From positions 172,145-236,144 of the forward strand of contig JANWZD010000002.1 of the NCBI GenBank assembly GCA_025054935.1: DNA of 64,000 bases, in the 5' to 3' direction. This document shows positions 6,835 through 52,200 of the stretch, piece after piece. Below the pieces are notes generated by a model. It was not told the DNA's origin and did no database searches. It saw nothing but the letters and a program-made list of their open reading frames with translations. The translations under genes were made by a program, and so were the position numbers. Source of the stretch: Dehalococcoidia bacterium (lineage in GTDB: Bacteria; Chloroflexota; Dehalococcoidia; SpSt-223). The first letter of the stretch is position 1; every line of letters begins with the position of its first letter.

Positions 6835-7415
6835 TGCGGCTGCTGCTCCTCTCGGCGTCGCCGCGCCGGCGCGACCTCCTTGCTGCAAGCGGCCTCTCTT
6901 TTGAGGTCTGCCCAGTCGCCATCGACGAGACCCCCCGCCCCGGGGAGTCCCCCGCGCAGCTCGCGGAGCGGCTGGCCCGCGAAAAAGCGGCCGTGGCCCC
7001 GGTGCGCGACGCTTGGGGCATCGCCGCCGACACCGTCGTTGCCCTCGAAGGCGAGGTGTTCGGCAAGCCGGCAACCCCCGAGGAAGCGGTCGCGATGCTT
7101 CGCCGGCTGCGCGGCCGCTGGCATGAGGTGTATACCGCAGTCGCCGTTCGCCGTCCGGATGGCGTTCTCCTCTCCGCGGTTGACCGCACCCGTGTCCTCA
7201 TGCGCTCGTATAGTGACCAGGAGATCGCCGCCTACGTCGCGAGCGGCGACCCGCTCGACAAAGCGGGAGCGTATGCAATCCAGCATCCGGGCTTCCGGCC
7301 GGTCGAGCGGATCGAAGGGCGATACGATACTGTCGTCGGGCTGCCGGTACCCCTGGTCATGCAGCTGCTCGATGCTGCCGGCTGGCCGCTCAGGTCAGCC
7401 GCAAGTCCGCAATAA
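6831..7415 (+). CDS. maf: Maf-like nucleoside triphosphate pyrophosphatase
   Basis: Maf family motifs (LLSASPRRRDLL ... AYAIQ) over 194 aa. ATGA overlap with the preceding gene. Confidence 0.85.
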   Translation: MMRLLLLSASPRRRDLLAASGLSFEVCPVAIDETPRPGESPAQLAERLAREKAAVAPVRDAWGIAADTVVALEGEVFGKPATPEEAVAMLRRLRGRWHEVYTAVAVRRPDGVLLSAVDRTRVLMRSYSDQEIAAYVASGDPLDKAGAYAIQHPGFRPVERIEGRYDTVVGLPVPLVMQLLDAAGWPLRSAASPQ

Positions 7416-8061
7416 GGTCGGTCTCGCTCGTCTGGATCGCGAGGATTCGAAAGCCGACAGCATTCCGGTAGGCGTTCATGCGGGTGTTGATCGCCTCCTC
7501 AACGACCTCGGCAATCTGCCCCCGAAACGGCAGGAGCAGGAGTGAGGAGCTGAGAGGCGTCACCGCAATGCGGTTTCCCGCCAAGGAAAGCTGCCCCGTA
7601 AACGAGAGGGCGAGGTCGCGCGCGCCGACCGGACGCGCGCGCAGGACGATGATGTTGCCAGGGCGGATGTCGAGGTCAACGGTGTCGATGCCGGCGCCGA
7701 TCCCGCTGGTCGGGATCGACTGGTTGGCAACGGAATTGAGATACGCCTCTGAGATCCGAAGCTGCACGTCATAGCGTCCCGGTGGGCGGGGCGTCGGCTC
7801 GGGGAGCAGCTCCGGAAAAGGCGTCGGCGTTGCGGCGGGAACGAGGACCGGAAGTTCGGTAGGGGTCGGCGCTGCTGGGCTCGCGCCGAAGGTGACCGGC
7901 TCGGCGAACTGGGCGACGATTGTCGCCGCCGCCGCGTAGCCGAGAAGGAGCAGCAGCGCGAGGGTTCCTACCGCGCCGAGCGCCATCATGCCGAGGGAAT
8001 AGAGACATGAATGGACCGGGGGACTAAGGGTCGGGTCGGGTCGGCGGCCCGGCTTGATCAC
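7390..8061 (-). CDS. hypothetical membrane-anchored protein (N-terminal TM, Pro/Thr-rich linker, C-terminal globular domain)
   Basis: ORF with a hydrophobic N-terminus (MMALGAVGTLALLLLLGYAAAA) and a PTPT linker, convergent with maf. No family motif recognised; a start at Met25 (7989) is possible. Confidence 0.4.
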   Translation of the reverse strand: MIKPGRRPDPTLSPPVHSCLYSLGMMALGAVGTLALLLLLGYAAAATIVAQFAEPVTFGASPAAPTPTELPVLVPAATPTPFPELLPEPTPRPPGRYDVQLRISEAYLNSVANQSIPTSGIGAGIDTVDLDIRPGNIIVLRARPVGARDLALSFTGQLSLAGNRIAVTPLSSSLLLLPFRGQIAEVVEEAINTRMNAYRNAVGFRILAIQTSETDLIADLRLT

Positions 8062-8186
8062 GCCTCATCTCCTACAGTGATGTTTTAACGCCGTCGGCCA
8101 GTGTTCGTTCCGCCTCCTTGACTCCTTGCTGCTCGCGCTCGAGAATCGCGTCGGACCCGGACAGGATGGCCGAAAGGGGGCGTGCC

Positions 8187-9521
8187 ATGCGGATTCTTTG
8201 GGTGCTGGCGCTTGCGCTGGCGCTGATCATTCCGGCGAACGTGTCGGCGCAGGAGCCGAGAGCGGGGCGGATCGCGTTTGCCGGACCGTTCGGCCTCTGG
8301 ACGATCGGGAGCGACGGGCGCGGTGAACAGCTGCTTCCCAGCGGGGTGGGCGCCGACATGCCGGCGTGGTCCCCGGATGGCCGCCGCCTCGTCTACGTCA
8401 TCAGCGGCACGCCGGAAGCAGGGGTCTGGCTGCTCGACCTGCAGGACGGCTCCCGCCGCCTCCTGACGCGCGATCTCTGGCGCTGGCCGGCCTGGTCTCC
8501 CGATGGCCGCGCGATCGCGTTTACGCTGCCGCATCCGTTCGGCTCTGACCTCGGCATCTGGGACCTCCAAGTAGGCGCCGGCGTCATCATCGCTACTGGC
8601 GGGTTCAATGAAGCGCCCTCGTGGTGGCTCGACGGCTCGCGCCTGCTTTTCAGCCGGAATGGCGAAATCTGGAACATTCGCGTTGATGGCGGCGAGGCCG
8701 GGCCCCTGCCGGGGCTCGCGGGGATACGAGCGCTGCAGGCTGCTTGGTCGCCGGACGGCTTGCGGCTTGCCTACCTCACGACACCCAGAGAACGCAGCTT
8801 CGACGACCCGACCGCGCCGGTCCAATTGTGGGTCGCAACGAGCGAAGGGTTTGACGGCCAGTGGATCGCCCAGGGCGCGATCGACCGGACGCAGCGGATC
8901 AGCTGGTCGCCGGATGGCAACCAGATCGCTTTCGCGGTCCTCTCCGGCCTCGGGTCGGATATCTACACCATCTACCGAACGGGCGGAGAGTGGCAGCGCC
9001 TCTCGGACGGACGCAATCCGGCGTGGCGGCCGGCGGTGCCGGACGTGACGCGCCCTGTCTCACCGGTGTGCGCGATCGCTCCGGAACGGCTGTATGCCGA
9101 CGCCTTCCGGAAAGTGCCCGCGCTCCAACAGTATATCGGCTGCCCCACCGACCAGATCTCCTCGGTGTATGGGGTGATGCAGGAGTTCGAAGGCGGGTTC
9201 CTCTACTACCGGACCCTGCCGAGCGGCACGACGACATGGGTGTTCTTCAACGACGGCACGTGGACTGCCGGCGACCCCCGTCCGCTGCTCGCAGCGCCGA
9301 TCGTTCCGCCGCCGCCCGGCCGCTTCGTGCCGAGGAATGCCTTCTTCAACGTGTGGGTTGCCCTTGGCGGCCCCGTGTCGCGGCTTGGCTGGGCGACGAC
9401 CGAAGAGACGGGCTTCCCGAGCGACGGGCAGCCGTATGAACGCGGCCTCGCGTTTGCGGGGAACAATCGCGTTATCTTCCTCAACGTCGACGGGACGTAC
9501 CAGATGGTGCTGCTGCCCTAG
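8187..9521 (+). CDS. TolB-like periplasmic beta-propeller protein (PD40/WD40-like repeats) with extra C-terminal domain
   Basis: Signal peptide (MRILWVLALALALIIPANVSA) at the internal ATG 8187, preceded by AAGGGGG. Repeated WSPDGRRLVY / WSPDGRAIAF / WSPDGLRLAY / WSPDGNQIAF PD40 motifs. The track ORF start at 8118 is probably too far upstream. Confidence 0.7.
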   Translation: MRILWVLALALALIIPANVSAQEPRAGRIAFAGPFGLWTIGSDGRGEQLLPSGVGADMPAWSPDGRRLVYVISGTPEAGVWLLDLQDGSRRLLTRDLWRWPAWSPDGRAIAFTLPHPFGSDLGIWDLQVGAGVIIATGGFNEAPSWWLDGSRLLFSRNGEIWNIRVDGGEAGPLPGLAGIRALQAAWSPDGLRLAYLTTPRERSFDDPTAPVQLWVATSEGFDGQWIAQGAIDRTQRISWSPDGNQIAFAVLSGLGSDIYTIYRTGGEWQRLSDGRNPAWRPAVPDVTRPVSPVCAIAPERLYADAFRKVPALQQYIGCPTDQISSVYGVMQEFEGGFLYYRTLPSGTTTWVFFNDGTWTAGDPRPLLAAPIVPPPPGRFVPRNAFFNVWVALGGPVSRLGWATTEETGFPSDGQPYERGLAFAGNNRVIFLNVDGTYQMVLLP

Positions 9522-9666
9522 CGTCCGCTGCCCCTATAGCGGCGGGGGCGCTGCTCTCAGCGCTCAGCAGCCGCCTTCCCGCTGCGTCGCGGTGAAGCCG
9601 CGCGCATTCTGATATGATCCTTCGCGATTCTCTCAATACCGCGCCCAGCGCGCCACAGGAGACGAG

Positions 9667-11277
9667 GTGCAGGAGCTTCGCGGGGTTCAGCTCGGCCCCT
9701 ACGTCCTCGAACGCGAAATTGGCCAGGTCGGGGCGGCGCGTGTCTTTGTCGGGATGCAGACGACCCTCGGCCGTCGCGTTATGGTGAAAGTCCTCAACCT
9801 CTCTGGCGCTGTCAGTCCGACGGTTATCGAGCGGTTCAAACGCGAAGCGGCCGCGATCTCGCGGCTGCGCCATCCGCATATCGTTACTGTCCACGACTTT
9901 GGAGAAGAGAGCGGTCTGCTGTACCTCGTGACCGAGTATGTCGAGGGCGGCACCCTCGCCGAGCGCCTCGGCCAGCCGCTGCCGTTCATCCAGGCCTACC
10001 TGATCATTTCCCAGGTTGCGAGCGCCCTCGACTATGCCCACTCGCGCGGGGTGATCCACCGCAACGTCAGCCCCGATACCTTGCTGCTCGTTGAGCGGGG
10101 CGGCCCGCGGAGCCTCCTCGACGGCAATGCCCATCCGTGGGTCCTGCTCTCTGACTTCAGTCTCGTCAAGCTGACCGACCTGCCGACGGTGACAGGCAAT
10201 GCCGCGCTCTTCGGCGCACCGTATTACATGAGCCCCGAACAGGCCCAGGGCTTGCCTGTCGATAAGACGACCGACATCTACTCCTTAGCGATCGTCGCTT
10301 TCGAGCTGTTGACGGGCCATGTGCCTTTTGGCGGCAACACCGCCTTCGAGGTAGCGAATAAGCACATCACCGAGCCGCTGCCGAGCGTGCGTCTTGTCGT
10401 CCCCGACCTTCCTCCCGAGATCGATCGCGTGCTCCAGACCGCGGCGGCCAAGTACCCGCGCGAGCGCTATCAGTCAGCCGGAGACTTCGCCGACGCGTTC
10501 GCGCGAGCGGGAGGGATCGAGCCGACCGGGCGCGACGCGTCTCTCATCACGCCTAGCGTCGGAAACGGCGTTGCGCCGGCCTTCCCGGCGGGCGAGCCGG
10601 TCGACGACGAAGACGAAGCGCCGATCCGGCCGCTCCCCTCTTGGGCGATCCCCGCTGGGGGCGCGACGATCGGTTTGCTCTTTATCTGCCTCGCCATATT
10701 CTGCGGCCTTAATATCGTGGGTCCGGCGGTCAGCCGCGCTCTCGGGCTGACGACGACCCCAACTCCCACTGCGACCCCAACTGTCCGCCCGGTGCTGCCG
10801 GCAGCAACCGGCACCGTGACTGGCACGGCCGGAACAGCGGCGACGCCGACGATCCCCGTGCCGACGGTTGTTGTGACGGGGGCAGTCATCTTTCCTTCCG
10901 ACGCCGAGGCCGTCCAGAATGTTGTCCGCCAGAGCAACGTTGTTTGGGCGAGGGCAGTGGGCAAGGGCGGCACTACTGATGAACTGAGCACGGTCTTCGC
11001 CGGACGCTGGCTGAACCTGATCACCAGCCAGGTCCGCGCTCTGCGCAGCAATCAGCAATACCGCGACGCCCAGCTGCTCGACCTCCGGATCGAGTCCATC
11101 GAATTCCAGAGCAATACCTCGGCGACCGTGCGGACCGTCGAGCGGTGGAACGACACGCTGCGGGCCGAGAACGGAACGCTCATTACGACCAATCCATCCA
11201 ATCTTCGTCAGGAGTACGATCTCGAGCGGATCAACGGGAGATGGTACGTCGTTGACTCTCGGATCCAGCGCGGCTAG
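9667..11277 (+). CDS. Ser/Thr protein kinase homologue with degenerate catalytic motifs (putative pseudokinase), single TM, Thr/Pro linker and C-terminal NTF2-like domain
   Basis: Kinase fold is recognisable (VMVKV lysine, ERFKREAAAISRL, HxVIHRN, DFS, SPE). However the catalytic-loop Asp is Asn (HRN instead of HRD), LKPxN is VSPDT, DFG is DFS and the Gly-rich loop is GQVGAARV. It is followed by a TM helix (IGLLFICLAIFCGL), a TPTPTATPT linker and a C-terminal domain. Confidence 0.8.
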   Translation: MQELRGVQLGPYVLEREIGQVGAARVFVGMQTTLGRRVMVKVLNLSGAVSPTVIERFKREAAAISRLRHPHIVTVHDFGEESGLLYLVTEYVEGGTLAERLGQPLPFIQAYLIISQVASALDYAHSRGVIHRNVSPDTLLLVERGGPRSLLDGNAHPWVLLSDFSLVKLTDLPTVTGNAALFGAPYYMSPEQAQGLPVDKTTDIYSLAIVAFELLTGHVPFGGNTAFEVANKHITEPLPSVRLVVPDLPPEIDRVLQTAAAKYPRERYQSAGDFADAFARAGGIEPTGRDASLITPSVGNGVAPAFPAGEPVDDEDEAPIRPLPSWAIPAGGATIGLLFICLAIFCGLNIVGPAVSRALGLTTTPTPTATPTVRPVLPAATGTVTGTAGTAATPTIPVPTVVVTGAVIFPSDAEAVQNVVRQSNVVWARAVGKGGTTDELSTVFAGRWLNLITSQVRALRSNQQYRDAQLLDLRIESIEFQSNTSATVRTVERWNDTLRAENGTLITTNPSNLRQEYDLERINGRWYVVDSRIQRG

Positions 11278-11294
11278 CCGCTACCCCCCGAACC

Positions 11295-14114
11295 GTGGTG
11301 ACGTCCTCCTCCCGCGTTGATACTCCCCGCATGCTGACGAGGTTCCCAGGGCGCTTGCAGCGGTCTCAGCCGCCTGCTGCGCTCAGCGTCGGCGACTGGA
11401 TCACGGCGGCCTTCCTCGCAGTCGCGGCGTTTCTGCTCTACCGCCAGACCCTCGCGCCCTCGGTCGTCGCCCTCTTCGATGACACGCTCGAGTTTCCCCT
11501 TGCTGCCCACCAGTTCGCCATCCTCCACCCAACGGGCTATCCGCTCTATGCGCTTTTGCTGGGGCTCTTTGCCCTTCTGCCGGTAGGCGAGCTCGCCTAC
11601 CGTGTCAATCTCCTCTCGGCTGTCGCCGGCGCGGCGGCCGTCGGCGGAATGGCAGTGCTCATCCTCGTCCTCGCTGTCGGCTCGCGGCGGGCGAGCGACC
11701 GCGTGGGGGCAGCGGTCGGCGCGCTGCTGCTTGCCGGCTCGAGTGTGTTCTGGTCGCAGGCGATCGTCGCCGAGGTGTACACCTTGGCGGCGGCGCTTGC
11801 GCTCTTCGCTGTCCTCGCTACCCTTCGCGCTCTCCGCTGCGGCCGGGGCTGGAGCTGGGTCGCGTTTGCAGTTGGGCTGGGCCTTGCGCATCACCGCACC
11901 TTCGTCCTCCTCCTGCCTGCCCTTGCGCTCGCGGCGGCGGCGGCCGGCGCGCTCCCTCCTCCTCGCCGGTGGTGCCCGAGCGTGCTCCTGCGAACATGGT
12001 GGCCGCTCGCTCTTGGGCTGCTGCTCTATCTCTACCTCCCGCTTCGAGCCTCGGTCGGCTCAATCGACGGAACCTACCGCAACGACCTCCCCACCTTCCT
12101 TGGGTGGGTGACCGGCGCGGTCTACGGCGGCTTTCTCGGGGAGAACCCGCTCGCGCGTCCGGGCAACCCGCTCCTTGCGTATGCGCAGCTTGTGATCAGC
12201 CAGTTGACGCCGCTCGGCCTCATCTTGGCCGCGCTCGGCTTCGGCTGGCTGCTCGCGCGCTCGTGGCCGCTCGCGCTGCTGCTTGGGGCGTGGTATGTCC
12301 CGACAGCGCTCTTCGCGCTCCTCTACCGCGTTGCCGACCCTGAGGTTTTTGCGCTGCCCTCCTTGCTTCCGCTCGCTGCGGCGGCGGGCGTTGGCGGGGT
12401 CGCGCTCGGGCGCGGCCTCGCGAATGTCGTCCTCCGCTGGAGCATGCCGTGGCGGGCGATTGCTCGCGCCGGAGGCGGCATCGTGCTCGCCGCGCTCGTG
12501 GTGGCGCCAGCGAGCGCGGTGATCGCGAACTACGACGATGTTGACCTGAGCAGCGAACTGACCGCGCGCGCGTACGGGCTCGACGCCCTCGCCCAGCCGT
12601 TGCCGGCGAGCAGCGCCATCATCGCATTGCTCGGCGAAGCGTCGCTGTTCCGCTACCTCCAAACTGCTGTCGGAGCGCGCCCGGACATCGCCGTCCGCTT
12701 TGCCGACCGGGAAGAAGCGCGGCTTGCTGCTGTTCAAGCTGCGCTCGACGAAGGCCGCGAGGTGTACGTGACGCGGCCTCTTTCCGGACTGGCTGAGCGC
12801 TACCATCTCAGCGGCGTCGGCCCGCTAATCGCTGTCGAGCGTCTGCCCGCGGAGACCCTGCCGCCAGGGGTGCGGCCGGTCAACCGGCTTCTCGGCGAGA
12901 TCGAACTGCTCGGTTACACCAGCGAGATCATTTTCGGCTATGGCCTCGGCCCGGGGGGGCCGTCAGACCTTCGTCCCGCCGCTCGGTCGGTGCGCGTGAC
13001 CCTCTTCTGGCGGGCAAGCGCGCCGATTGCCCAAGACCTCGTCACCTTTGTCCACCTCCAGGAGCCCTCTGGCGAGCGCTGGGCCCAGTCGGATAGCCGG
13101 CCGGTTCGCGGAGCGTATCCCGCGCCCCTGTGGAGACCGGGCACCATCGTCGCCGACGTCCACGACCTCCCGCTGCCGCTCGGCACGCCCCCCGGCGACT
13201 ACATCCTCGTTGGCGGGCTCTATCAGGCGGCAGGCGAAGGGAGGGTGGCGCCCCAGAGTGTCCGCGAGGTGCGCCTTGGCCCTCAGTTTCTCGACCCCCG
13301 CCCTGGCGGCTACACCCGCGCTCGGCTCGACCTTGACCCAGCGTTCGCGCGCTTCAGCGGTGTCACCCTAATTGGCCAGCGCCTGCCGAAAGGGTCGGTG
13401 CCGCCGGGGGGGCAGTTGCCGCTGGAAACCCTCTGGCGCAGCGAGCGCGAGATGGCTTCCTCGCTCACCCTGACGGCAGAGCTGCTCGGCGAGGGCCGAA
13501 CGGTGCCGCTCGGCAGCGCGCCGCTTGGCGGACGCTACACCACGGTTCGCTGGCAGCCCGGCGAGATCGTGCGCGACCGCGAGACGTTTCGGCTCCCGCC
13601 CGACCTGCCCGATGGGCGCTATCAGCTTCGGATCTCGCTCGGCGAAGGAACGCGCCATGTCCTCGGGTCGATTGAAGTCGTCGGCCGCCAGCGGCTGTTC
13701 CAGCTGCCGGCGCCGCCTCCCAATCGAACGGCTGTCCGCTTCGTCGGAGGGCCGGAGCTGCTTGGCTGGACGGCGAAACGCGTGGGCAGTGCGCCGGAAC
13801 AGCGCGCCGAGATCACGCTCTACTGGCGCTCGGCCGGCCCGCTCGACAGGGACTACAGTGTCTTTGTCCATCTCGTTGCAATGAACCGGATCGTGGCCCA
13901 GCACGACGGCCAGCCGGCAGACGGCACCGCCCCAACGACGGGCTGGGTGCCGAACGAGTACATCATCGACCGTCACCGTGTTCCGCTCCCTGCCGGCCTT
14001 CCGCCCGAGCAGCTTCGGCTCGTCGTGGGGATGTATGACCCCGTGACCGGTCGCCGTCTCCTCTCTCCTCGCGGCGACGCGGTCGATCTCGGGCCGCTCC
14101 GGTTTGAGCCATGA
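11295..14114 (+). CDS. GT-C superfamily membrane glycosyltransferase (GT39/PMT-like, DUF2723-type) with three tandem C-terminal ~120-aa repeats
   Basis: About 440 aa with 11+ predicted TM helices and PMT/ArnT-like loops (FDDTLEFPLAAHQFAILHPTGYPLY). The C-terminal 500 aa are a threefold repeat (W.PGE..D...LP..LP.G.Y.L..G.Y), seen for example in ...VFVHLVAMNRIVAQHDGQP...LRLVVGMYDPVTGRRL. The start is GTG 11295 or ATG 11331. Confidence 0.8.
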   Translation: MVTSSSRVDTPRMLTRFPGRLQRSQPPAALSVGDWITAAFLAVAAFLLYRQTLAPSVVALFDDTLEFPLAAHQFAILHPTGYPLYALLLGLFALLPVGELAYRVNLLSAVAGAAAVGGMAVLILVLAVGSRRASDRVGAAVGALLLAGSSVFWSQAIVAEVYTLAAALALFAVLATLRALRCGRGWSWVAFAVGLGLAHHRTFVLLLPALALAAAAAGALPPPRRWCPSVLLRTWWPLALGLLLYLYLPLRASVGSIDGTYRNDLPTFLGWVTGAVYGGFLGENPLARPGNPLLAYAQLVISQLTPLGLILAALGFGWLLARSWPLALLLGAWYVPTALFALLYRVADPEVFALPSLLPLAAAAGVGGVALGRGLANVVLRWSMPWRAIARAGGGIVLAALVVAPASAVIANYDDVDLSSELTARAYGLDALAQPLPASSAIIALLGEASLFRYLQTAVGARPDIAVRFADREEARLAAVQAALDEGREVYVTRPLSGLAERYHLSGVGPLIAVERLPAETLPPGVRPVNRLLGEIELLGYTSEIIFGYGLGPGGPSDLRPAARSVRVTLFWRASAPIAQDLVTFVHLQEPSGERWAQSDSRPVRGAYPAPLWRPGTIVADVHDLPLPLGTPPGDYILVGGLYQAAGEGRVAPQSVREVRLGPQFLDPRPGGYTRARLDLDPAFARFSGVTLIGQRLPKGSVPPGGQLPLETLWRSEREMASSLTLTAELLGEGRTVPLGSAPLGGRYTTVRWQPGEIVRDRETFRLPPDLPDGRYQLRISLGEGTRHVLGSIEVVGRQRLFQLPAPPPNRTAVRFVGGPELLGWTAKRVGSAPEQRAEITLYWRSAGPLDRDYSVFVHLVAMNRIVAQHDGQPADGTAPTTGWVPNEYIIDRHRVPLPAGLPPEQLRLVVGMYDPVTGRRLLSPRGDAVDLGPLRFEP

Positions 14115-16891
14115 TGAGCGTCCCGGCGCGGCGTCTCCGCCGAGCGGCCGTGCCGGCAGTTGCCGCTCCCGGCACCTTCCTGCTCGGCGCAGTTGGGGTG
14201 CTGCTGCTGGCTGCAGCTGCGCGCTTCTACAATCTCGGCGCGTCCAGTCTCTGGTATGACGAAGGGTTCAGCGCCTTCGTCGCGAGCGAACCGCTTCCCG
14301 AGCTCATCGCGCATACCGCCCGCGATATCCATCCTCCGCTCTACTATCTCTTGCTTCATGGGTGGATGCAGGCAGCGGGACGGAGCGACGTTGCTCTCGC
14401 ATTTTTCTCGCTCGTCTTCGGTCTGCTCTCGGTTGCGCTCGTCATCGCGCTCGCCCGGCGCTGGTTTGGCGACGGGGCAGGGCTCTTGGCCGGACTGGCT
14501 GCTGCCGTCAATCCCTTCCAAATCTGGTACTCCCAAGAAGTGCGGATGTACACCCTCGCCGCCTTCTTAGGGCTGCTCGTTCTCGCCGCCGCGGGGCGGG
14601 GCGAGCGTCGCGATAGCGCTCTCTACGTCGCGGCCGCAGCCGCTGGCCTCTTCGTCCTCTATTACCTCGCTTTTCTGCTGGTCACGCTTAACCTAGTCAT
14701 GCTGGGAGCGTTCGTCGTGAAGCGGCGGCTGCTTGGGCAGTGGACGCCGCGCCGCTGGCTGATCGCTCAAGTGCTGGTGCTGCTGCTCTACCTGCCGTGG
14801 CTGCCGATCGCGGTGCGGCACGCGCTTGCGCCGGCGGTGCCGCCGTGGCGCGACTTCGTTCCGCCCGACGCGGCGCTGCTGGAGAGTGTCGCGGTCTTCG
14901 CGGCCGGGCAGCTGGCGACGCCGCAGATCCCCCTCACGCTGCTTGTCGTCGGGCTGGTCCTTGCTGCGCTCGGCACGGTGAGCCCGACCGCCGGCCGCAT
15001 GCCGGTTTTCCTCATGCTCGCCGCCGTCGCGGGACCGGTTCTCCTGATCGTGGCAGTCTCCTTCGTCACCCCGCTCTATCATCCGCGCTACCTCTTCCCC
15101 TTCAGCCTCCCGGTGAGCGTGGTGGTCGGCGTGGGGATGGCGCGCCTGCTTGCCGCGGCGCCCCCGCTGGGCGCGGCGGCGCTGGCGGCTCTTCTGCTCG
15201 GCTCGGCAAGCGCCGTGCACGCCTATCACACCGACGACCGGATCGCGCCTGACGACTACCGCGCTGCCGTCGCCTATCTCGCGGAGCGCTGGCAGCCGGG
15301 CGACGCGCTGCTCATGAATGCCGGCTATATCTATGCTCCCTTCGTCCACTACTGGCCGCATCCCATCGGCTGGCGCGGCCGCCTCACCGACAGCCCGCCC
15401 CCGACCGAGGGAGCGATTGTCTACCAGACGGGAACGATTGATGGCCCGCCGGGCCTCGGCGGCGGTGACCCGCGCGCCGATTTCTACTCGACGACGTGGG
15501 CAGAGACTGAAGCTGCTCTTCAGCGCATCGCCGCTCGCCACGCCCGGCTCTGGGTGCTGCGCGGCTACGATACTGTCACCGACCCCCGGGGACAGATCCG
15601 CCAGTGGCTGACCGACCACGGTCGCCCGTTTGAGGATGTCGTCTTTCGCGGCCCAAGCAACATTCGCGTTCAGGGCTGGATTGTCGGCGAGGCGCCTCCC
15701 GAACGCGCTGCGGCGACCGACGGCCCGCTGACGGCGGGATATCGCCCCGTGCGCGGCGATGTGACGGCCGGCGGCTCCGCGCGCGTGGCGATCGCTTGGC
15801 GTCCTGACGCGCCGGTCGATCGCCCGCTGCGCGCCTATCTTGCCCTGGTCGATGAGGAGGGCCGGATTTGGGCGCAGCAGGACGATCCTGCAGTCGGCCC
15901 GGCGTGGACCGCCGCCGCCTGGCGCCGAGGGCAGTGGACTCCAGACCCGCGCGCGTTTCGCATCCCGCCCGGCACACCGCCCGGCGACTACCGGGTTGAG
16001 CTCGGCGCCTACTTCCCCGGCGGCAGCGCGATAGAGTTCGAGACCGCCGCCGGGCGGGCGTGGCGCCTTCCGGTCGGCGAGCTGACCGTTCGCCGCGGCA
16101 TCGGCCTTGCCGACCCGAAAGTGCTGCTCCCGGTCGGCCGAGAGCTCGCGCCGGGACTGTGGCTGGTAGGGGCCGATTTTGGGCAGTTCGAGGTGCGCGA
16201 GGGCGAGACGCTCCGTCCCACCCTCGTCTGGCGGGCGCGCTCTTCCGCGCCGGCAGGGACAATCGCCCTGCGGCTGGTGATGAAAGAAGGACCCGTTGCC
16301 GCGATGACGGCGGGTGAACCGCTCGGCGGGCGCTACCCCCTGCGGGAGTGGCGCGCTGGCGAGCTGGTCCGCGATCCTCGCGAACTGCCGATCCCCGCCG
16401 GCGTCGAGGGGATCGGCACGCTGGAAGTGTCGGCGGGGCAGGGATGGCATCCTCTCGCTGAAGTGCGGGTGGAAGGACGGCAACGACGGTACGATGTTCC
16501 GCGTCTTGGCCAGCCGTTCGGCGCGCGCCTTGGCGACGTCGCCGAGCTTGTCGCCGCAGCCATTGCTGAGGGCAGGCCGGCGCAGGTCACCCTCGTCTGG
16601 CGCGCTGCCGGACGGACCGAGACGAGCTACACCGTCTTTCTCCAAGCGCTGGATGCGGCCGGGCGGATCGTTGCCCAGCGCGACCTTCCCCCCCTCGGCG
16701 GCGCGGCGCTTACCTCAAGCTGGCTGCCGGGCGAAGTGATCGTGGATGAAATCGCCCTCACTCCGCGGCCGGACGTTCCGGCGGGGCCATACCGCCTCAT
16801 CGTCGGCCTCTATGACCCTCGCACAGGCACTCGTCTCCGGCTGCCGAGCGGGGATGATTATGTGGAAATCGGCACCGTGCGTTTCGAATGA
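14111..16891 (+). CDS. GT-C superfamily membrane glycosyltransferase (GT39/ArnT/PMT-like), paralogue of the preceding gene, with the same threefold C-terminal repeat
   Basis: ATGA overlap with the upstream gene. N-terminal PMT/ArnT-like motif (LWYDEGFSAFVASEPL...DIHPPLYYLLLHGWM) and multiple TM helices. The C-terminal repeats are collinear with those of 11295..14114 (YTVFLQALDAAGRIVAQRD...YRLIVGLYDPRTGTRLRLP). Confidence 0.8.
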   Translation: MMSVPARRLRRAAVPAVAAPGTFLLGAVGVLLLAAAARFYNLGASSLWYDEGFSAFVASEPLPELIAHTARDIHPPLYYLLLHGWMQAAGRSDVALAFFSLVFGLLSVALVIALARRWFGDGAGLLAGLAAAVNPFQIWYSQEVRMYTLAAFLGLLVLAAAGRGERRDSALYVAAAAAGLFVLYYLAFLLVTLNLVMLGAFVVKRRLLGQWTPRRWLIAQVLVLLLYLPWLPIAVRHALAPAVPPWRDFVPPDAALLESVAVFAAGQLATPQIPLTLLVVGLVLAALGTVSPTAGRMPVFLMLAAVAGPVLLIVAVSFVTPLYHPRYLFPFSLPVSVVVGVGMARLLAAAPPLGAAALAALLLGSASAVHAYHTDDRIAPDDYRAAVAYLAERWQPGDALLMNAGYIYAPFVHYWPHPIGWRGRLTDSPPPTEGAIVYQTGTIDGPPGLGGGDPRADFYSTTWAETEAALQRIAARHARLWVLRGYDTVTDPRGQIRQWLTDHGRPFEDVVFRGPSNIRVQGWIVGEAPPERAAATDGPLTAGYRPVRGDVTAGGSARVAIAWRPDAPVDRPLRAYLALVDEEGRIWAQQDDPAVGPAWTAAAWRRGQWTPDPRAFRIPPGTPPGDYRVELGAYFPGGSAIEFETAAGRAWRLPVGELTVRRGIGLADPKVLLPVGRELAPGLWLVGADFGQFEVREGETLRPTLVWRARSSAPAGTIALRLVMKEGPVAAMTAGEPLGGRYPLREWRAGELVRDPRELPIPAGVEGIGTLEVSAGQGWHPLAEVRVEGRQRRYDVPRLGQPFGARLGDVAELVAAAIAEGRPAQVTLVWRAAGRTETSYTVFLQALDAAGRIVAQRDLPPLGGAALTSSWLPGEVIVDEIALTPRPDVPAGPYRLIVGLYDPRTGTRLRLPSGDDYVEIGTVRFE

Positions 16892-17714: not shown

Positions 17715-17805
17715 GCAGCGAGCGCGTTCTTGGAGCGACGCCTCGCGCCAGTATAATCGCTCTCAGGACCGGTGAGGGCGCGCAGTTTGCGCGGCCGGCG
17801 GAGAG

Positions 17806-24187: not shown

Positions 24188-25948
24188 ATGCTCGGCGTCT
24201 TGCTCGGTGGCCGCTACCGTCTCGAACGAGAAATCGGCGCCGGGGGCATGGCGCAGGTCTTCCGAGCGACGGATGAGGCACTCGGCCGGGTGGTCGCGAT
24301 CAAGATGCCGCGCGACCAGTATGCCGAGGACCCTCTCTTCCGCGAGCGGTTTCTCCGCGAGGCGCGCGCGGCGGGCCGGCTCTCCCATCCCAACATTGTC
24401 GCGGTCTATGACGTCGGTGAGCAGGGAGGGCGGCCGTTTCTCGTCATGCAGCTGGTCGAGGGGCCAACGCTGCGCGAGGAGATTGCGCGCCGGGGGCCGT
24501 TGCCGATTGCCGAGGCGGTTGCCTATGCCCAGCAGGTCGCTGAGGCGCTGGCCTACGCCCATCTCAACGGCATTGTCCACCGCGATGTCAAACCAGCAAA
24601 TATTCTGCTGACGAATCCTCTCGGGAGCGCCAGCCCTTCCGCCCGCCGAGCGCTCCTCTCCGACTTCGGGATCGCCCGCTCGATCGGCGAAGCGGGACTG
24701 TCATCAAGCCACGAAGTGTTCGGCACCGTTCACTATCTTGCCCCCGAGCGAGCGCTCGGCCACGAGGCGACGCCCGCTAGCGATGTCTATGCGCTCGGCG
24801 TCGTCCTCTACGAGATGCTGACCGGCCGGGTCCCGTTCAGCGCCGATACGCCCATCGCCACGGCGCTCGCCCACGCGCGTCAGCCGGTTCCGCCGCCGCG
24901 CGCCTTCAATCCCGCTCTCCCCGCCGCTCTCGAGCGCGTCCTCCTCCGAGCGCTTGCTAAGAACCCTGCGGAACGCTTCCGCACGGGCGCCGAGTTCGCG
25001 GCCGCGCTTGCGGCCATCCGCAGCGGCGCCCTCAGCGACACCGAGCGCTACGCTCCGGTGGCTCAGCCAGTGGATGCCGCTGATGCCCGGACCGTCGCTG
25101 CTGTGCCTGTCGTTGCCGCTGCGGCCGCCGACGGCGAGCGCGGCGGCGGGTGTCTCTGGCTGTGGGCAGCGCTCGGCGTCTTGGTCGCCGCCTTCCTCTT
25201 TGCGCTTGGGCTGCTTGCTGTTGCCAATCGCCACCAGCTAGGCGCGGCGGCGCCCGTTGCGCTGCCGACACGAACTGCCACCCCCGCTCCTCCTACCCCT
25301 ACCGCCATTCCGCAAGTGCGCGTTCCGGCCGTCGAGGGGATGGACGCCGCGGCGGCGCGAACGGCGCTCCGCCAAGCGGGGTTCGAGGTTCGGGAGGGGG
25401 CCCAGGAGTTTCATCCGACGGTTCCAGCCGGCCGGGTGATCCGCACCGCTCCCCCGGCGGGACGCCTCGCCGCCGCAGGCTCGACGGTAGAACTGGTGGT
25501 GTCGAGAGGCCCTGAGCTGATCGAAGTGCCTGCGGTGCAAAATCTCCTGCTCGCCGACGCCAAGAAACGCTTGGAGGAGGCGGGGTTCGAGGTGGTCGAA
25601 ATCGGGGAATGGAACAGCGCCGTTGCCCGCGACACCGTGCTCCTCCAAACCCCCCGCGCAGGCGAGAGGGTACCGCGCGGTTCGCGGGTAACCATTACCT
25701 ACAGCCTCGGGCGCGAGCGGACCCGGGTGCCCAATGTTGTCGGCATGCGCGAGGAGGAGGCAAAACGGGCCATTGAGCAGGCGCGGTTGCGCAATGCGCC
25801 CTATGTCAACTATCAGACACGGCGTGACCTGCCCGAGTCGGTGCTGAGCCAAGTCTGCGTTGGCTGCGTTCTGAGCAGCACGCCCGCGCCGGGGACCGAA
25901 GTCGATCTCGGCACCGAGGTATTCATCGCGGTGCGCGGCCGCGACTAG
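24188..25948 (+). CDS. Ser/Thr protein kinase with three C-terminal PASTA domains (PknB/PrkC-like)
   Basis: Canonical kinase motifs (GAGGMAQVF, VAIKMPR, HRDVKPANILL, DFGIAR, APE), a TM segment, and three PASTA-like modules (VRVPAVEGMDAAAARTALRQAGFEV; IEVPAVQNLLLADAKKRLEEAGFEV; TRVPNVVGMREEEAKRAIEQARL). Confidence 0.85.
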   Translation: MLGVLLGGRYRLEREIGAGGMAQVFRATDEALGRVVAIKMPRDQYAEDPLFRERFLREARAAGRLSHPNIVAVYDVGEQGGRPFLVMQLVEGPTLREEIARRGPLPIAEAVAYAQQVAEALAYAHLNGIVHRDVKPANILLTNPLGSASPSARRALLSDFGIARSIGEAGLSSSHEVFGTVHYLAPERALGHEATPASDVYALGVVLYEMLTGRVPFSADTPIATALAHARQPVPPPRAFNPALPAALERVLLRALAKNPAERFRTGAEFAAALAAIRSGALSDTERYAPVAQPVDAADARTVAAVPVVAAAAADGERGGGCLWLWAALGVLVAAFLFALGLLAVANRHQLGAAAPVALPTRTATPAPPTPTAIPQVRVPAVEGMDAAAARTALRQAGFEVREGAQEFHPTVPAGRVIRTAPPAGRLAAAGSTVELVVSRGPELIEVPAVQNLLLADAKKRLEEAGFEVVEIGEWNSAVARDTVLLQTPRAGERVPRGSRVTITYSLGRERTRVPNVVGMREEEAKRAIEQARLRNAPYVNYQTRRDLPESVLSQVCVGCVLSSTPAPGTEVDLGTEVFIAVRGRD

Positions 25949-36598: not shown

Positions 36599-36859
36599 GT
36601 GACCATCTATACCCGCGCCGACTCTGCGGATTGCCGCGCGCTCAAGCTGTTCCTCGACGCCCGCGGTGTTCCCTACCGCGAACTGGACGCCCGCCACCCC
36701 GGCGTCCGCCATCAGATGTTCCAGCGCTACGGTGTGCTTGTTGTCCCGATCGTCGTCATCGGCCGGCAGGCGTTCTTCGGCTTTGCCGAGAACCGCGCCG
36801 CAATCGAGCGCGCGCTCCGCGAGGGAGTGCTCAGGCCCACGGAAGAGGACCGTACTTAA
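36599..36859 (+). CDS. glutaredoxin-fold protein with atypical SxxC active-site position
   Basis: 86 aa with thioredoxin-fold landmarks (IYTRADSADCRALKLFLDARGVPYRELD ... VPIVVIGRQAFFGF). SADC occupies the canonical CPYC position. Confidence 0.6.
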   Translation: MTIYTRADSADCRALKLFLDARGVPYRELDARHPGVRHQMFQRYGVLVVPIVVIGRQAFFGFAENRAAIERALREGVLRPTEEDRT

Positions 36860-37697
36860 ACACCCACGCCAGCAGTTCGTCGCTCAGCGCTTTGAGGCGC
36901 CGCCGCTCCTCGTTGGTCGGGCGCTGCGACGACCGGAGCAGCGCTTCGATGGCCGCGATCGCGCGCTGCGCCGGGCTCACCTCCGGGGGCGGCGGCTCGG
37001 CTGCTGGCGCGGCCTCGCGGCGGACGAGCGCGCGCGCTGTTTGCTGGTCGAGGTCGCCCTGCAGGATGCGTTGGCGGATGCGGGCGCGCATCTCGGGCGA
37101 CTTCACCGAGAGCAGACGTTCGGCGGTGGAGACGGCGATCTTGCCGGAGCGCACGGCTTCGCCCAGCTCGGGGTCCTCGTAGACCCGGACGCGGCGGCTG
37201 ACGTAGGAAGGGTCCTTATGGATCTTGCGGGCGAGCTCGCGCACGCCGAAGCCGCGCTGCCGCATCAGGGCGTCGAAGGCTGCTGCTTCTTCCTCCGGCG
37301 GAATGTTCTCGCGCTGGAGGTTCTCAATCAGGGCGGCAACGACCGCCTGCTCTTCATCAAAATCCCGGATCACCGCCGGGATCTCTCGCAGCCCGAGCTG
37401 CTGCGCCGCGCGATAGCGTCGCTCTCCCGAGATGAGGATGAACCCATCTTCGGCACGGCGGACGACAACTGGCTGCAGGAAGCCGACATCTTGGATGCTT
37501 CTCGCAAGCTCTTCGAGAGTGGCCTTGGGAAAACTCTTGCGCGGCTGCTGGGGGTCGGGACGGATCTGGTCGATGGGGACCATCTTCGCGCTCGGGTCGG
37601 GGCGGGTTGCCCGTTCGCCGACGATCGTGAACAGCATGCGGTCGCTCACCTCGGACGCATCGCGGGCAAACGTCGGCTGAACTCGGCTAGACGGCAT
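36831..37697 (-). CDS. parB: chromosome partitioning protein ParB (Spo0J)
   Basis: ParB box ([21 protein letters not shown]) and an HTH region. The ATG at 37697 overlaps the parA stop (ATGCCGTCTAG); the longer track ORF (to 37775) would overlap parA by 89 nt. Confidence 0.85.
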
Positions 37698-38460
37698 AGC
37701 GGACCATCCCCATTCGTTCGAGCAGGGTCTCAGCGAGCGCGCGGTAGGTGGCGGCGAGCTCACTGTTCGAGGCATAGTCGAGCAGGCTGAGGCTGCGCTC
37801 CTGCGCCTCGAGCACTTTCACGGTCTGCCGGATGGGCGGCGCGAGAACAAGGTCGCCGAGCGCGTTGCGCACGTCGGCGAGCAGTTCGCGGTCGTAGAGG
37901 CGGCGCGGGTCGAAGAACGTCGGCAACACGCCGATCAGGTCTAAGGCGGGATTGAGATGGCGGCGGACGGCCGCGATCAGCCCCCGGAGATGGTTCAGGC
38001 CGAGAAGAGGCAGTCGCGCCATCTGAACTGGAACGAGCGCCCAGCGAGCGGCAGCGAGGGCATTGACTGTCAGCAGGCCAAGCGACGGCGGGCAGTCGAT
38101 CAGGACGATCTCCCACTCGGCGCGGTCGGCGAGTTCGTCCCGAAGGATCGTCTCGCGGGCGAGCGCCTGCTGAGCAGCCACCTCCGCTGCGGCGAGGTCG
38201 AGGTGTGCCGGCGCGACGGCAAGGTTCGGCCTGAGCGCGCGGACAATCGCTCCCAGCGAGCGCTCGCGGCTGAGGAGGGCCGCTGTCGACTCGCCGGCGT
38301 CGATCGTCTCGAGCCCCAGCGCCGCGGTCAGGTTTGCTTGCGGGTCAAGGTCGATTAGGAGAACCCGCGCTCCCTGCTCTGCGAACGCCGCGCCCAAGTT
38401 GAGCGCCGTCGTCGTCTTGCCGACGCCCCCTTTCTGATTGGCGATCGCGATCACCACCAC
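37687..38460 (-). CDS. parA: chromosome partitioning ATPase ParA (Soj)
   Basis: Deviant Walker A ([20 protein letters not shown]), 257 aa, immediately upstream of parB. Confidence 0.9.
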
Positions 38461-45101: not shown

Positions 45102-45176
45102 GCCGACATGGCTCAGCGGTAGAGCAGCCGCCTCGTAAGCGGCAGGTCCCCGGTTCGAATCCGGGTGTCGGCTCCA
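45102..45176 (+). tRNA. tRNA-Thr: tRNA-Thr (anticodon CGT), CCA encoded
   Basis: 75 nt: acceptor GCCGACA/TGTCGGC, D-arm GCTC-AGCGGTAG-AGC, anticodon arm GCCGC-CTCGTAA-GCGGC (CGT at 45134..45136), T-arm CCCGG-TTCGAAT-CCGGG, discriminator T and CCA. Confidence 0.9.
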
Positions 45177-49264: not shown

Positions 49265-52200
49265 TTATTCCCGGACCTCGAAGCGCGCGCTGCCGCTTCG
49301 GCCCCACACCTCCGGGAAGTACATCAAGCTTGCCCGCGCCGGCGGGACGACGAAGTCGCCGGCCGTCGTCACGCGGACGAGGTAGGAGAACTGGTAGGTT
49401 CCCCGCGGTAGAGCGCGCGCGAAAAGGGCGACCCGGTCATCGCGGATATCGATATGCGAGAAGCGCCAGGCCGATCGCCCGCCTCCTCGCTCGAAGATAC
49501 TCGCCGTCGCAAGGTCGGGGTTCACGGCCTCGGCGCCGGCGAACAACGGGTCGTCCACCACCACGTAGTCGAGGTCGCTCGGGGCGATGATGGTCAGCTG
49601 GACGCGAATGAGGTCGCCGACCCTCGCAGAACGGATCGGGCTTGTGCTGGTCGGGTCAGCGGGCAGGTACTCGCGGGTGATTGCAATCCCCTCCGCGCGC
49701 GGCTCGGCCTGCTCCCCAAGGCGGAAGGTGCGGAGCGACGCCGTGTAATAGAGCCGTCCCGCGGCGCTCGGTAGGCCGCTCGCCTCCCGCTCGAGCACGA
49801 GCCGGTTCGGCGCGTCGAGCAGCAGGTCGCGCACGGGGACAACGAGTGTGCGCGCGCCCGGCGTGTCCTGGGTGACGCGGCCGCTCGCGAGTGCTCGGCC
49901 GTTGAGGGAGACGCGATAGCGATAATCGGGCGACGGCAGAGCAGAGCGAACAGCATAGACAGCAAGCGCGTTCAGCGCGGCGGCGGTGTCGAAGGTGGTG
50001 CCCCACCAGCCGTCGCGCCGCTCGATCATCAGCCAGCGCACGGCCGGGTCAATGAGCGGGCTTTGCGGGTCAGCGGCGAGGAGGGCTTGCAGGACGACTG
50101 CCGTCGATCGGCTCGTTCCGCCGAGTCTGCGTCGGTCGCCGGGGTCGTTCCAGTGGACTCCGGTCGCGCTCCACGTGGCGGTGCCGACAAGTTCGTTCAG
50201 CAGGGTCGCAGTGCGGGCGTCGCCGCGGTCGCCGTTCGCCCGGAAGATGGCGAGGAGGAGGGACGCCTTGGCCCAGTCGGCGAGGGCAGCCCGCCGCTCG
50301 AATAGGGCGTTGAGCGCTCCGGTCGAAGGCCGCCCCGCTTCGGCGAGGACGAAGAGGGCATAGGCGCGGGCGTTGGCATCGTCGGGACTGCCGACGTCGA
50401 CAGGACGCTGCAGCTGCTGCGTCACGGCATCGAGGCCGCGCGCAAGGCTGCTTTCATCGACTGCGTAGCCGGCCTTCTGCGCCCTGATGAGGCCAAAGAC
50501 GGCGTAGGCGGTGAGGAAGGGCTGGCTTGGGTCGCCGCGGAACCAGCCCCAGCCGCCGTCGGTCCGCTGCGCCAGCGCAAGCCGCTGGAGGGCAGCAATA
50601 TTCTGGTCCGCAATCCGGCTGACGAGCTCCGGCGTCAGCGTTCCCGTCGCGCTCAGGACGCGCAGGTAGTCGAGCGAGGAGAGTAGCCGCGAGACGGTTA
50701 CCTCGGTCGGCTCCCACGGGAAGGCGCTCAGTTCGCGGAAGCCGGTTTCTAGGCCGGCGGTGAGTGAGGGAGCGAGTTCGACCGTCAGTTCGCCGAGATT
50801 GGGGTTGACGGGGCTCGGCACCCGGACCGTTTCGACCACTTGGGCGGCGACTTGCCCGCTAGAGGCGACGACCTCGGCGGTCGCGAGCGGATTGACCGGC
50901 AGCGCAATTTCGACGGCGTCGCCGGGGGGGCTGGTCCCGCCGGTGTCGGCGCGGAAACGGAGACGCGCCTCGCCCGGCTGGCCGGCGCTCACCTCCCAGC
51001 GGGCGCTTGCCGTCCCGCGCGCCGGGACGCTCAGCCGCGGCGCCGCGAAGCCGCCAGCCGGCGAGGCGAGATTGCTCACCTCAAGGGTGGCGGTAACCTC
51101 CAGCGGCCGGTCGGTCAGGTTCTGGACGATCGCGCCGACTGTCGCCCGATCGCCGCTGGTCAGGAAGCGCGGCACCACCGGCCGCACGAGGAGGTCCTTC
51201 GTGCTGACGATGTCATGGGTCGCTTGACCGAACTGGGAGTCGCGCGTCACCGCCTTGACAGTCAGCCGCCACGTTGTCAGATTGTCCGGAAGCATGACAT
51301 CGAATGTCGCCTCGCCGTTGCGGTCGGTGACAAGACGGGGGCTCCAGAAGGCGGTATCGGCAAAGCGCGAGCGCACCTCGCGGATCGCGCCGCCGCCTCC
51401 CTTGCCGGCGGCGCGTGAGGCGATGTCGAGGCGGGTCTGCGATGCCGCTAATGTCGCGGCAGTGACGACGCCGAGTCCGCGCTCGCGGTAGAAGCGATCA
51501 AACAGCCACGTCGGCGGCTCGTCGTCGGCGAGCGACAGGACAGCGCGGTCGACGACCGCCGCCGAGAGCTGCGCCTGCACCGGCCGTCCGGCGGCATCGG
51601 TCGCCTTCACCCGGTAGCGGACGGTCTCGCCGGGCTGGTAGCGCGCCTTGTCGCTGCGGATCTCGAGCGTGAGCAGTTTCGCCGAGGCATCCACCCGAAG
51701 ATTGGCGTAGCCGAGCTTGTAGGAAGGCGGCCCCTGGGCGCTGTCGCCGGCAAAGGCGACGACCGAGACGAAAACGTTCGGCAGGTAGTCGGGCTCGACG
51801 GGGATGTCGAGAACGGGGCTGCTGGATGTCAGCGTGACGACGCGGGAGGAGCGCACGCCTTGGCGCTCGATGGTGAGGAGCGCGGTTGAGGTCGCGAACG
51901 GGGTCGGCACGAGCAGCTTCGCGGTCTCGCCCGGCGCGTAGACCGGCTTGTCGAGGACGAGGTCCATCCGGTCGTTGCTCTCCAGCCCCCAGTTGACGAA
52001 CTCGGTTCCGGCAACCCAGAGGAAGGCGACCGTTCGTACCTCGTTGCCGAGTTCATCGCGGCCCGTCGCTTGGATGCGGTAGAGGCCAGGGCGCGGAGGC
52101 GTGAACGCCGCTTGGGCGCGGCCGTTCCTGTCCGTTGTCAGAGTGCGCGCTGCGCCTGGCACCGGCGTGTCCTCGAAGGTCGTGACCCAGACGAGGTCAC

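Follow-up and report, generated by a model that had tools for sequence, protein, structure and literature searches.

The question raised by this locus is whether a bacterial gene named as a protein kinase still encodes an enzyme, or whether its product has become a signalling protein of another kind. The gene lies at positions 9,667 to 11,277 of a 64,000-nucleotide stretch of DNA (the window, meaning here the whole stretch analysed) from a Dehalococcoidia bacterium of the phylum Chloroflexota (assembly GCA_025054935.1, contig JANWZD010000002.1, positions 172,145 to 236,144). An initial annotation made from the letters alone had noticed that the product lacks the catalytic Asp and the Gly of the DFG motif, and had called it a pseudokinase, a kind of protein described as rarely annotated and as acting in allosteric or scaffolding roles. 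According to the present analysis, the gene product is, judged from its sequence, a bitopic receptor-like membrane pseudokinase that is kept by selection in a narrow Dehalococcoidia (Chloroflexota) lineage. An identical protein, P0001, occurs in public metagenome-assembled genomes (MAGs) named Chloroflexota or Dehalococcoidia bacterium. The names given to the protein and its orthologues in the databases are only 'protein kinase', as for P0001, or 'hypothetical protein', which agrees with the remark on rare annotation, and NCBIfam holds no family-level name for it.

Kinase-like domain and its catalytic motifs

The N-terminal domain matches the Pfam family Pkinase (PF00069; E-value 4.5e-34, 118.5 bits against a cutoff of 31.7), and phmmer aligned it without gaps to PknA of Mycobacterium tuberculosis (4x3f, E-value 3.7e-45). 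In this alignment 'ihrnvspdtlll' stands under 'vhrdvkpgnili' and 'dfs' under 'dfg', by which N133 takes the place of the catalytic Asp, S135 that of the catalytic-loop Lys, T138 that of the Mg-binding Asn, and S165 that of the DFG Gly. The two departures that had been read from the letters, HRNVSPDT for HRDxKxxN and DFS for DFG, are thereby confirmed and do not come from a misalignment. The AlphaFold model was built from 46 sequences and has a mean predicted local distance difference test score (pLDDT) of 80.9, with values above 90 across most of residues 1–290, the kinase-like domain. The closest relatives with a solved structure are M. tuberculosis PknA, StkP of Streptococcus pneumoniae, PknE and PknB. 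By the model the cytoplasmic N-terminal domain has the PknA/PknB fold, and the Foldseek target template modelling score of the domain is 0.86–0.89 with PknA 4x3f and Staphylococcus aureus PknB 4eqm, or 0.8–0.89 when PknA, S. aureus PknB and PknB are all counted. The activation loop (residues 169–181) is modelled with low confidence, and the model suggests that it may be flexible.

The beta3 Lys (K41, in VMVKV) and the alphaC Glu (E60) are retained, as had been stated before. Thus, of the residues needed for competence, the beta3 Lys, the alphaC Glu and the DFG Asp are present, while the HRD Asp, the catalytic-loop Lys and the Mg-binding Asn are absent. By the standard sequence definition, a kinase homologue counts as a pseudokinase once the VAIK Lys, the HRD Asp or the DFG Asp, or more than one of them, has been lost; here the HRD Asp is changed to Asn in all nine orthologues and under purifying selection (see below), so that the pseudokinase signature claimed for the gene is upheld. 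Furthermore, there are changes that had not been noticed earlier, namely Met in place of the VAIK Ala, Thr in place of the gatekeeper Met, and a 12-residue insert, GGPRSLLDGNAH, between the catalytic loop and DFS, which is modelled with lower confidence (pLDDT 65–75).

Comparison with orthologues and active relatives

For comparison, 152 kinase domains from the 120 best database hits were aligned to one profile, and the 133 domains in which the beta3 Lys, the HRD Asp and the DFG Asp are all present are called active relatives here. The nine orthologues are 57–100% identical to the window protein (57–91% for the eight besides P0001); these eight, which come from NCBI, JGI and Logan assemblies, are full-length or nearly so and begin with MQELRG or VQELRG. 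HRN together with DFS is found in all nine orthologues and in none of the 143 other domains, 126 of which read HRD/DFG. The proposed check, whether orthologues conserve Asn at the HRD position, therefore gave Asn in nine of nine, and the Ser of DFS is likewise invariant. Six clade-specific changes hit positions that are 91–100% conserved in the active relatives, and all of these positions contact nucleotide or Mg (Table 1). The Gly-rich loop had also been called degenerate by comparison with GxGxxGxV. This holds for positions 21 and 23 only, because the consensus of the active relatives is GxGGMAxV and Ala24 is thus normal in the group. At position 21 the key Gly has given way to a residue that is beta-branched or bulkier in another way.

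Table 1. Residues at key positions of the kinase-like domain in the active relatives and the nine orthologues
Position	Role	Active relatives	Nine orthologues
21	second Gly of Gly-rich loop	Gly 98%	T/V/I/S/Y
39	VAIK Ala	Ala 98%	I/V/M/L
89	gatekeeper	Met 72%	T/S (Thr in the window protein)
133	catalytic Asp	Asp 100%	Asn 9/9
135	catalytic-loop Lys	Lys 91%	S/Q/C in 8/9
138	Mg-binding Asn	Asn 100%	T/S in 8/9
165	DFG Gly	Gly 100%	Ser 9/9

Judged from the alignment, the side chains that would contact phosphate, metal and adenine are all changed except the Lys-Glu pair and the DFG Asp, and the predicted fold-holding skeleton is kept, that is, the Lys-Glu pair, the His/Phe spine, the HRD Arg, the activation-loop Thr, the SPE motif and the Arg of subdomain XI. 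Residues K41, E60, H131, R132, D163, F164, T176, E191, D203 and R267 are invariant in the nine orthologues. The SPE motif and the activation segment are intact and the activation loop has its full length; Thr176 in this loop is matched by Thr in 116 of the 133 active relatives, and the second conserved Thr/Ser of the loop, two residues further on, is lost. L34 and D77 are also invariant in the nine, and we take them to be the equivalents of L33 and D76 of the back-to-back dimer interface of PknB, to which L750 and D793, the residues of the dimer contact in MviN, are analogous (PMC12599244). In addition, Arg25 is present in all nine orthologues and in 8% of the active relatives, and the 12-residue insert is absent from about 90–95% of the latter, although a shorter related insert ending in PW stands before the DFG strand in the active paralogues P0036 and P0037. 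In the orthologue P0008, the motif HRNVKPAN stands together with DFS. This suggests that P0008 is an apparent intermediate, and because it still has HRNVKPAN, the changes from Asp to Asn and from Gly to Ser would have come first and the loss of the Lys and the Asn later.

Selection, origin and distribution

The ratio of nonsynonymous to synonymous substitution rates (dN/dS) was calculated by the method of Nei and Gojobori for the window gene and three orthologous loci, giving six pairwise comparisons. The values are 0.05–0.12 for the kinase domain, where synonymous sites are saturated, and 0.05–0.19 for the whole gene, and in four of the six comparisons no other segment is under stronger constraint than the kinase domain. 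Moreover, the codon of N133 is AAC or AAT and that of S165 is AGC or AGT among the orthologues, and because these Asn and Ser codons vary synonymously, the amino acids are kept while the codons drift.

The nine orthologues form one clade, whose stem (0.115) is about five times as long as the median internal branch (0.021). In a search of one genome per species across 185,579 species, an orthologue was found in only three, KatS3mg060 (88% identity), STL-CHL33 (82%) and HOT.Cluster.3 (80%), all of which are Dehalococcoidia or Chloroflexota MAGs; the matches that follow these three are active kinases of Anaerolineae with at most 47% identity. The closest active relatives by identity are P0036 and P0037 (48–50%), from MAGs of the same Dehalococcoidia lineage, and KatS3mg060 carries both the active P0036 and the pseudokinase orthologue P0004. 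Since these closest active relatives share the lineage and the PW-ending insert, the pseudokinase is best read as a young, lineage-specific offshoot of ordinary Chloroflexota receptor kinases. In the neighbour-joining tree, two other active proteins, P0062 and P0089, stand as sisters, but they were down-weighted, as P0062 has neither the insert nor the ectodomain. P0036 and P0037 were weighted above them for their shared PW-ending insert and their origin from the same MAG lineage, and are regarded as candidate sisters only. For another observation, tandem proteins with two kinase domains are common among the best matches (P0010–P0021, P0024, P0078), and in P0024 and P0078 the partner domain is degenerate (HSG/DFA; VCG/TGG). 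As each of these two proteins holds such a domain, pseudokinase domains seem to have arisen several times independently in these Chloroflexota kinases.

Membrane helix, linker and extracytoplasmic domain

Behind the kinase-like domain there is a single transmembrane helix, WAIPAGGATIGLLFICLAIFCGL, followed by a linker that varies in length and has the highest dN/dS of the protein segments, and by a C-terminal domain; an N-in/C-out topology is expected from the family. The C-terminal domain matches the Pfam family ARC6-like_IMS (PF13355) over residues 428–527 with 33.8 bits against a cutoff of 22.8 (E-value 5.5e-8), and the same family is recorded in seven of the nine orthologues and in the fragment P0034. 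It is modelled as a confident alpha+beta domain of the NTF2-like type, and the closest solved structures are the domains of ARC6 and PARC6. When this domain was used as the query in an exhaustive search of 1.8 billion cluster representatives, only 65 relatives were obtained at an E-value of 0.001 or lower. Most of them are not kinases, the domain being fused there to a trypsin-like protease with SPOR, to BNR repeats or to a zinc ribbon. However, P0180 and P0183 are active HRD kinases with a related ectodomain, so that the layout of a kinase joined to an ARC6-like domain exists in an active form too. A Foldseek search also aligned the whole model over about 540 columns with subunits of the CaMKII holoenzyme (PDB 5u6y and 8uso). 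This likeness is architectural only, a kinase followed by an NTF2-like hub, and in the window protein the two domains are on opposite sides of the membrane.

Gene neighbourhood and upstream signals

The coordinates of the gene, its parts and its neighbours are collected in Table 2. The third-position G+C content of the pseudokinase gene (0.79) is as in the other genes of the window, the G+C content of which is high (63.5–71.3%). Maf stands first, followed by a small membrane protein on the opposite strand and by a PD40 propeller protein; past the pseudokinase come two GT-C glycosyltransferases, first the TMEM260-like one and then PMT_2. The order PD40, pseudokinase, GT-C, GT-C recurs wherever the flanks of an orthologue show neighbours.

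Table 2. Features of the pseudokinase locus and related genes in the window
Feature	Position	Strand	Remarks
Secreted TolB-like PD40 beta-propeller protein with C-terminal LGFP-like repeats	8118..9521	+	Pfam PD40; upstream neighbour
Extended -10-like box TCTGATATGATC (candidate)	9608..9619	+	48 nt 5' of the start codon
Shine-Dalgarno-like AGGAG	9657..9661	+	5 nt 5' of GTG 9667
Membrane pseudokinase gene, complete	9667..11277	+	GTG start; stop 11275–11277; 536 aa
Cytoplasmic PknA/PknB-like pseudokinase domain (predicted)	9667..10521	+	aa 1–285
Degenerate Gly-rich loop GQVGAARV	9721..9744	+	aa 19–26; second Gly to Val
Beta3 strand 'MVK'	9781..9789	+	aa 39–41; Lys kept, VAIK Ala to Met
Catalytic loop HRNVSPDT	10057..10080	+	aa 131–138; canonical HRDxKPxN
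12-residue insert	10099..10134	+	aa 145–156
DFS instead of DFG	10153..10161	+	aa 163–165; Asp and Phe kept
Activation-loop Thr176, candidate trans-phosphorylation site	10192..10194	+	from conservation
Single transmembrane helix	10645..10707	+	aa 327–347; hydrophobic, modelled as helix, conserved in orthologues
Pro/Thr-rich disordered linker	10711..10878	+	aa 349–404; pLDDT <50
Extracytoplasmic ARC6/PARC6-type NTF2-like domain	10879..11274	+	aa 405–536
GT-C glycosyltransferase, TMEM260-like protein O-mannosyltransferase family	11295..14114	+	PF11028, E 2e-23
GT-C glycosyltransferase PMT_2	14111..16891	+	PF13231, E 8e-9; kept in L001 and L005
Canonical PASTA Ser/Thr kinase	24188..25948	+	Pkinase, E 4.4e-48; three PASTA repeats

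The PD40 protein has a signal-like N-terminus, and its true start is probably the ATG at 8187, which gives 444 residues. Its gene adjoins the pseudokinase gene in six other loci, and upstream of the 57%-identical pseudokinase orthologue there is a fragment with 73% identity to the C-terminus of the PD40 protein (last 60 residues). The PD40 protein has seven orthologues at 58–87% identity, with the next match at about 30%, that is, the same narrow distribution as the pseudokinase, and one orthologue fragment, P0191, carries the LGFP family PF08310. Two repeats in the outside regions of P0036 and P0037 bear a weak likeness to the C-terminal LGFP-like repeats of the PD40 protein (BLASTP E-value 0.002–0.005), and the active paralogue and the PD40 neighbour may recognise the same envelope feature. 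Kinase-PD40 fusions exist among the relatives, and a 'Rosetta stone' argument was considered by which they would tie the pseudokinase to its PD40 neighbour, but it was dropped, for the propeller similarity is generic at 29% identity.

The first GT-C gene begins 17 nt past the pseudokinase stop and has the same place in L001, L002, L004 and L005, and the two GT-C genes overlap by 4 nt; from this arrangement the pseudokinase and the two GT-C genes are likely to be co-transcribed. NCBIfam has no family-level name for the first GT-C. Both GT-C proteins are about 930 residues long and have long C-terminal parts without a Pfam match, and their C-terminal halves are about 29% identical to each other across loci.

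Upstream of the pseudokinase gene, a promoter-like box, TCTGATATGATC, was obtained by aligning the orthologous intergenic regions. The box is kept, with a few substitutions at most, in six of the seven aligned regions, and it occurs once in the window, where 0.01 chance matches are expected; we take it as a candidate promoter of the pseudokinase gene. The AGGAG is also kept in six of the seven loci, and only A158, G159, A161 and G162 are invariant in all seven. As both the box and the AGGAG are conserved upstream of the GTG in six of seven loci, the pattern suggests that the pseudokinase gene has a promoter of its own, apart from the PD40 gene. A consensus scan for promoters and terminators over positions 7300–17900 gave a result no better than that for shuffled sequence.

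Proposed function and alternative explanations

Taking these results together, we hold that the protein most likely acts without catalysis, either as a receptor-like adaptor of active Hanks kinases or as their allosteric partner, and that it would be tied to envelope glycosylation. It would transfer no phosphate to proteins. The outside domain would bind a partner, possibly by the C-terminal tail of that partner, in the manner in which ARC6 binds PDV2 and PARC6 binds PDV1, the candidates being the upstream, co-distributed PD40-LGFP propeller protein or the downstream GT-C enzymes, and such binding may trigger dimerisation. The cytoplasmic domain would offer a place of docking to an active Hanks kinase or act on it allosterically, and for this kinase the P0036-type closest paralogue and the PASTA kinase at 24188 are candidates; Thr176 is likely to be phosphorylated in trans, and the probable output would be control of envelope glycosylation through the two GT-C genes. 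An allosteric or scaffolding role is plausible by analogy, as had been proposed, and our confidence in the specific partners is much less than in the adaptor role as a whole. A bolder form of this proposal, which we hold to be quite doubtful, makes the protein the centre of a trans-envelope module, where dimerisation would turn the dead kinase domain into an obligate HER3-style activator of an active Hanks kinase. If true, such a module, which has not been described before, would tie protein O-glycosylation in Chloroflexota to the condition of the cell surface.

Several points weigh against the adaptor reading. The protein still has the beta3 Lys, the alphaC Glu and the DFG Asp, and the equivalent of R10, the Arg of the PknB dimer interface, is Pro in the window protein. 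The losses of phosphotransfer and of ATP binding are inferred from the changed residues; HER3 is counted with those receptor tyrosine pseudokinases whose ATP site is accessible (PMC13259870), and since it also has an HRN loop, complete inactivity of the window protein stays an inference. The link to the GT-C genes comes from gene order in one narrow lineage, where the synteny could reflect recent common descent, and P0008 (L085), the most divergent orthologue with flanks, has neither neighbour within its 2.4-kb contig. Moreover, there is no gene for an FHA-domain protein or a PP2C in the window.

Some of these features would also fit a weak or atypical but real kinase, which would hold ATP via K41, E60 and D163 and perform slow or altered transfer, perhaps with help from Asp137, a residue gained anew in the catalytic loop. 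We consider this unlikely, although K41, E60, D163 and F164 are invariant in the nine orthologues, the activation segment and SPE motif are intact, and D137 is present in eight of nine orthologues and essentially absent from the active relatives, which have A, S or G there. Position 137, which we take to correspond to the substrate-recognition residue E170 of PKA, is not a catalytic position and is Ala in the orthologue P0008, so Asp137 was ruled out as a migrated catalytic residue. The precedent for such a kinase would be HER3, which has HRNxxxxN and an accessible ATP site (PMC13259870), but the window protein differs from HER3 in a series of further losses, which affect the catalytic-loop Lys, the Mg-binding Asn, the DFG Gly, the key Gly of the Gly-rich loop and the adenine-contacting Ala of VAIK. 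Far less probable is a fold that has been repurposed for AMPylation as in SelO, glutamylation as in SidJ or sugar phosphorylation as in POMK, possibly on substrates of the neighbouring enzymes. The retained Lys and DFG Asp and the conserved association with two O-mannosyltransferase-like GT-C genes would suit it, and POMK, a kinase fold once called a pseudokinase, phosphorylates O-mannose (PMC12599244). However, the domain is a close relative of PknA/PknB (35–37% identity) and not of SelO, SidJ or POMK, and with its bulky residues at positions 21 and 39 it is not likely to bind nucleotide in the normal way. Furthermore, GT-C enzymes work on the outer face of the membrane, whereas the kinase-like domain is N-terminal, has no signal peptide and should be cytoplasmic. 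Finally, a single nucleotide change is enough to turn Asp into Asn or Gly into Ser, and one might think of errors in sequencing or assembly or of gene decay, but the same substitutions are found in nine independent assemblies (NCBI, JGI, Logan) and the reading frames are intact. Since HRN and DFS are present in nine of nine orthologues, dN/dS is low and the critical codons vary synonymously, this explanation is refuted, its probability being negligible. The second kinase of the window, which had been named as a canonical control, indeed reads GAGGMAQV, HRDVKPAN and DFG. Thus, the earlier view that the degeneration is gene-specific and not sequencing noise holds, and the degeneration is moreover lineage-wide and under selection.

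Relation to known kinases and pseudokinases

The adaptor proposed here has the same fold and layout as PknA and PknB of M. tuberculosis, in which the kinase domain is N-terminal and cytoplasmic and a single transmembrane helix leads to a sensor domain outside; its kinase-like domain is 35–37% identical to PknA, and the Leu and Asp of the back-to-back dimer of PknA/PknB are kept. The difference is that the catalytic Asp, the catalytic-loop Lys, the Mg-binding Asn, the DFG Gly, the second Gly and the VAIK Ala have been replaced. It also differs from PASTA kinases, as there is no PASTA match, and NF033483 (PknB_PASTA_kin) scores 248.8 bits against a cutoff of 450, on the kinase part only. In the intermembrane-space domains of ARC6 and PARC6, which act in chloroplast division (PF13355), the identity to the ectodomain is 18–23%, and on the near side, where the pseudokinase has a kinase fold, ARC6 carries a J-like domain that binds FtsZ.

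Bacterial Hanks-type pseudokinases have hardly been studied, and among the families that reviews list, the mechanism has been worked out for essentially one, that of MviN (Rv3910) of M. tuberculosis. The pseudokinase domain of MviN is a substrate of PknB; it serves as a scaffold for docking, brings in FhaA and has a regulatory role in the synthesis of the cell wall. Its ATP pocket is filled with bulky residues, and L750 and D793 take part in a back-to-back dimer (PMC12599244). MviN, of the family ActPs3, and the window protein are both membrane-associated Hanks-type pseudokinases tied to envelope synthesis, although the tie of the latter is a proposed one, and the window protein also has bulkier residues in the pocket, at positions 21 and 39, and retains the Leu and the Asp of the dimer. 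On the other hand, ActPs3 members are without all three catalytic motifs and have a large deletion in the activation loop, while the present pseudokinase keeps the Lys, the DFG Asp and the full loop, has no MurJ flippase joined to it and comes from another phylum. Among eukaryotic proteins, HER3 is an allosteric activator of active family members, and Shi et al. in 2010 reportedly found that it keeps weak activity. HER3 (ErbB3) and the window protein are alike in the single transmembrane helix, the receptor-like layout, the HRN loop and the retention of the beta3 Lys and the DFG Asp (PMC13259870). However, HER3 keeps the catalytic-loop Asn, DFG and GxGxxG and is without the alphaC Glu, and the opposite is the case here, so the likeness is an analogy and not shared descent.

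Seven families of bacterial pseudokinases have been defined in an atlas of bacterial Ser/Thr kinases from 2025 and the review that goes with it, ActPs1–3, GLW, CP1, DYD and DLHK, which are likewise Hanks-type and several of which have a C-terminal transmembrane helix (10.1101/2025.01.12.632604; PMC12599244). In ActPs1, ActPs2, ActPs3 and GLW, the VAIK Lys and the DFG Asp are lost in essentially all members, and there is a GLW motif or there are large indels, whereas the present pseudokinase keeps both residues, has no GLW motif and has a full-length activation loop. CP1 is linked to COG3899 and has no transmembrane helix; DYD has a beta3 Arg, no alphaC Glu and a DYD motif; DLHK has no beta3 Lys, no transmembrane helix and helicase fusions. 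In contrast to these three, the window protein has the helix, the Lys and the Glu, reads DFS and not DYD, and shows no such fusions. Most of the seven families lack the DFG Asp or bear other hallmarks, and the nine-member clade nests among canonical Chloroflexota kinases. Set against the stated features of these families, the clade is to be placed in none of them and regarded as a new small family. What is new is this family, as bacterial Hanks-type pseudokinases as a kind of protein are already known.

The current annotation as 'protein kinase' overstates the function. The family is a clean natural example, with an unusual ectodomain and suggestive gene neighbours, in which only residues for the chemistry are removed and the skeleton, the activation-loop Thr and the receptor layout are kept. 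With the apparent intermediate HRNVKPAN, the close active paralogues in the same genomes and the conserved neighbourhood of envelope genes, it lends itself well to studies of the way in which a receptor kinase of bacteria turns into a non-catalytic signalling partner. Nothing is overturned by it, no surprising principle is demonstrated yet, and the practical impact is limited since the lineage is narrow and uncultured.

Other features of the window

A gene for a bacterial alpha-2-macroglobulin of 1,930 residues with four Big_5 domains (49265..55057, minus strand) adjoins a gene for a class A penicillin-binding protein with a PBP1C-type C-terminus (55072..57468, minus strand), which is the classic A2M-PBP1C pairing. 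With this pair, the PASTA kinase and an M23 peptidase, this genome of the class Dehalococcoidia clearly makes peptidoglycan. An Rfam scan of the window gave one tRNA gene as the sole match (45102..45173, plus strand), with none near the pseudokinase gene, and this tRNA gene and a ParA/ParB pair (36831..38460, minus strand) are ordinary chromosomal features.

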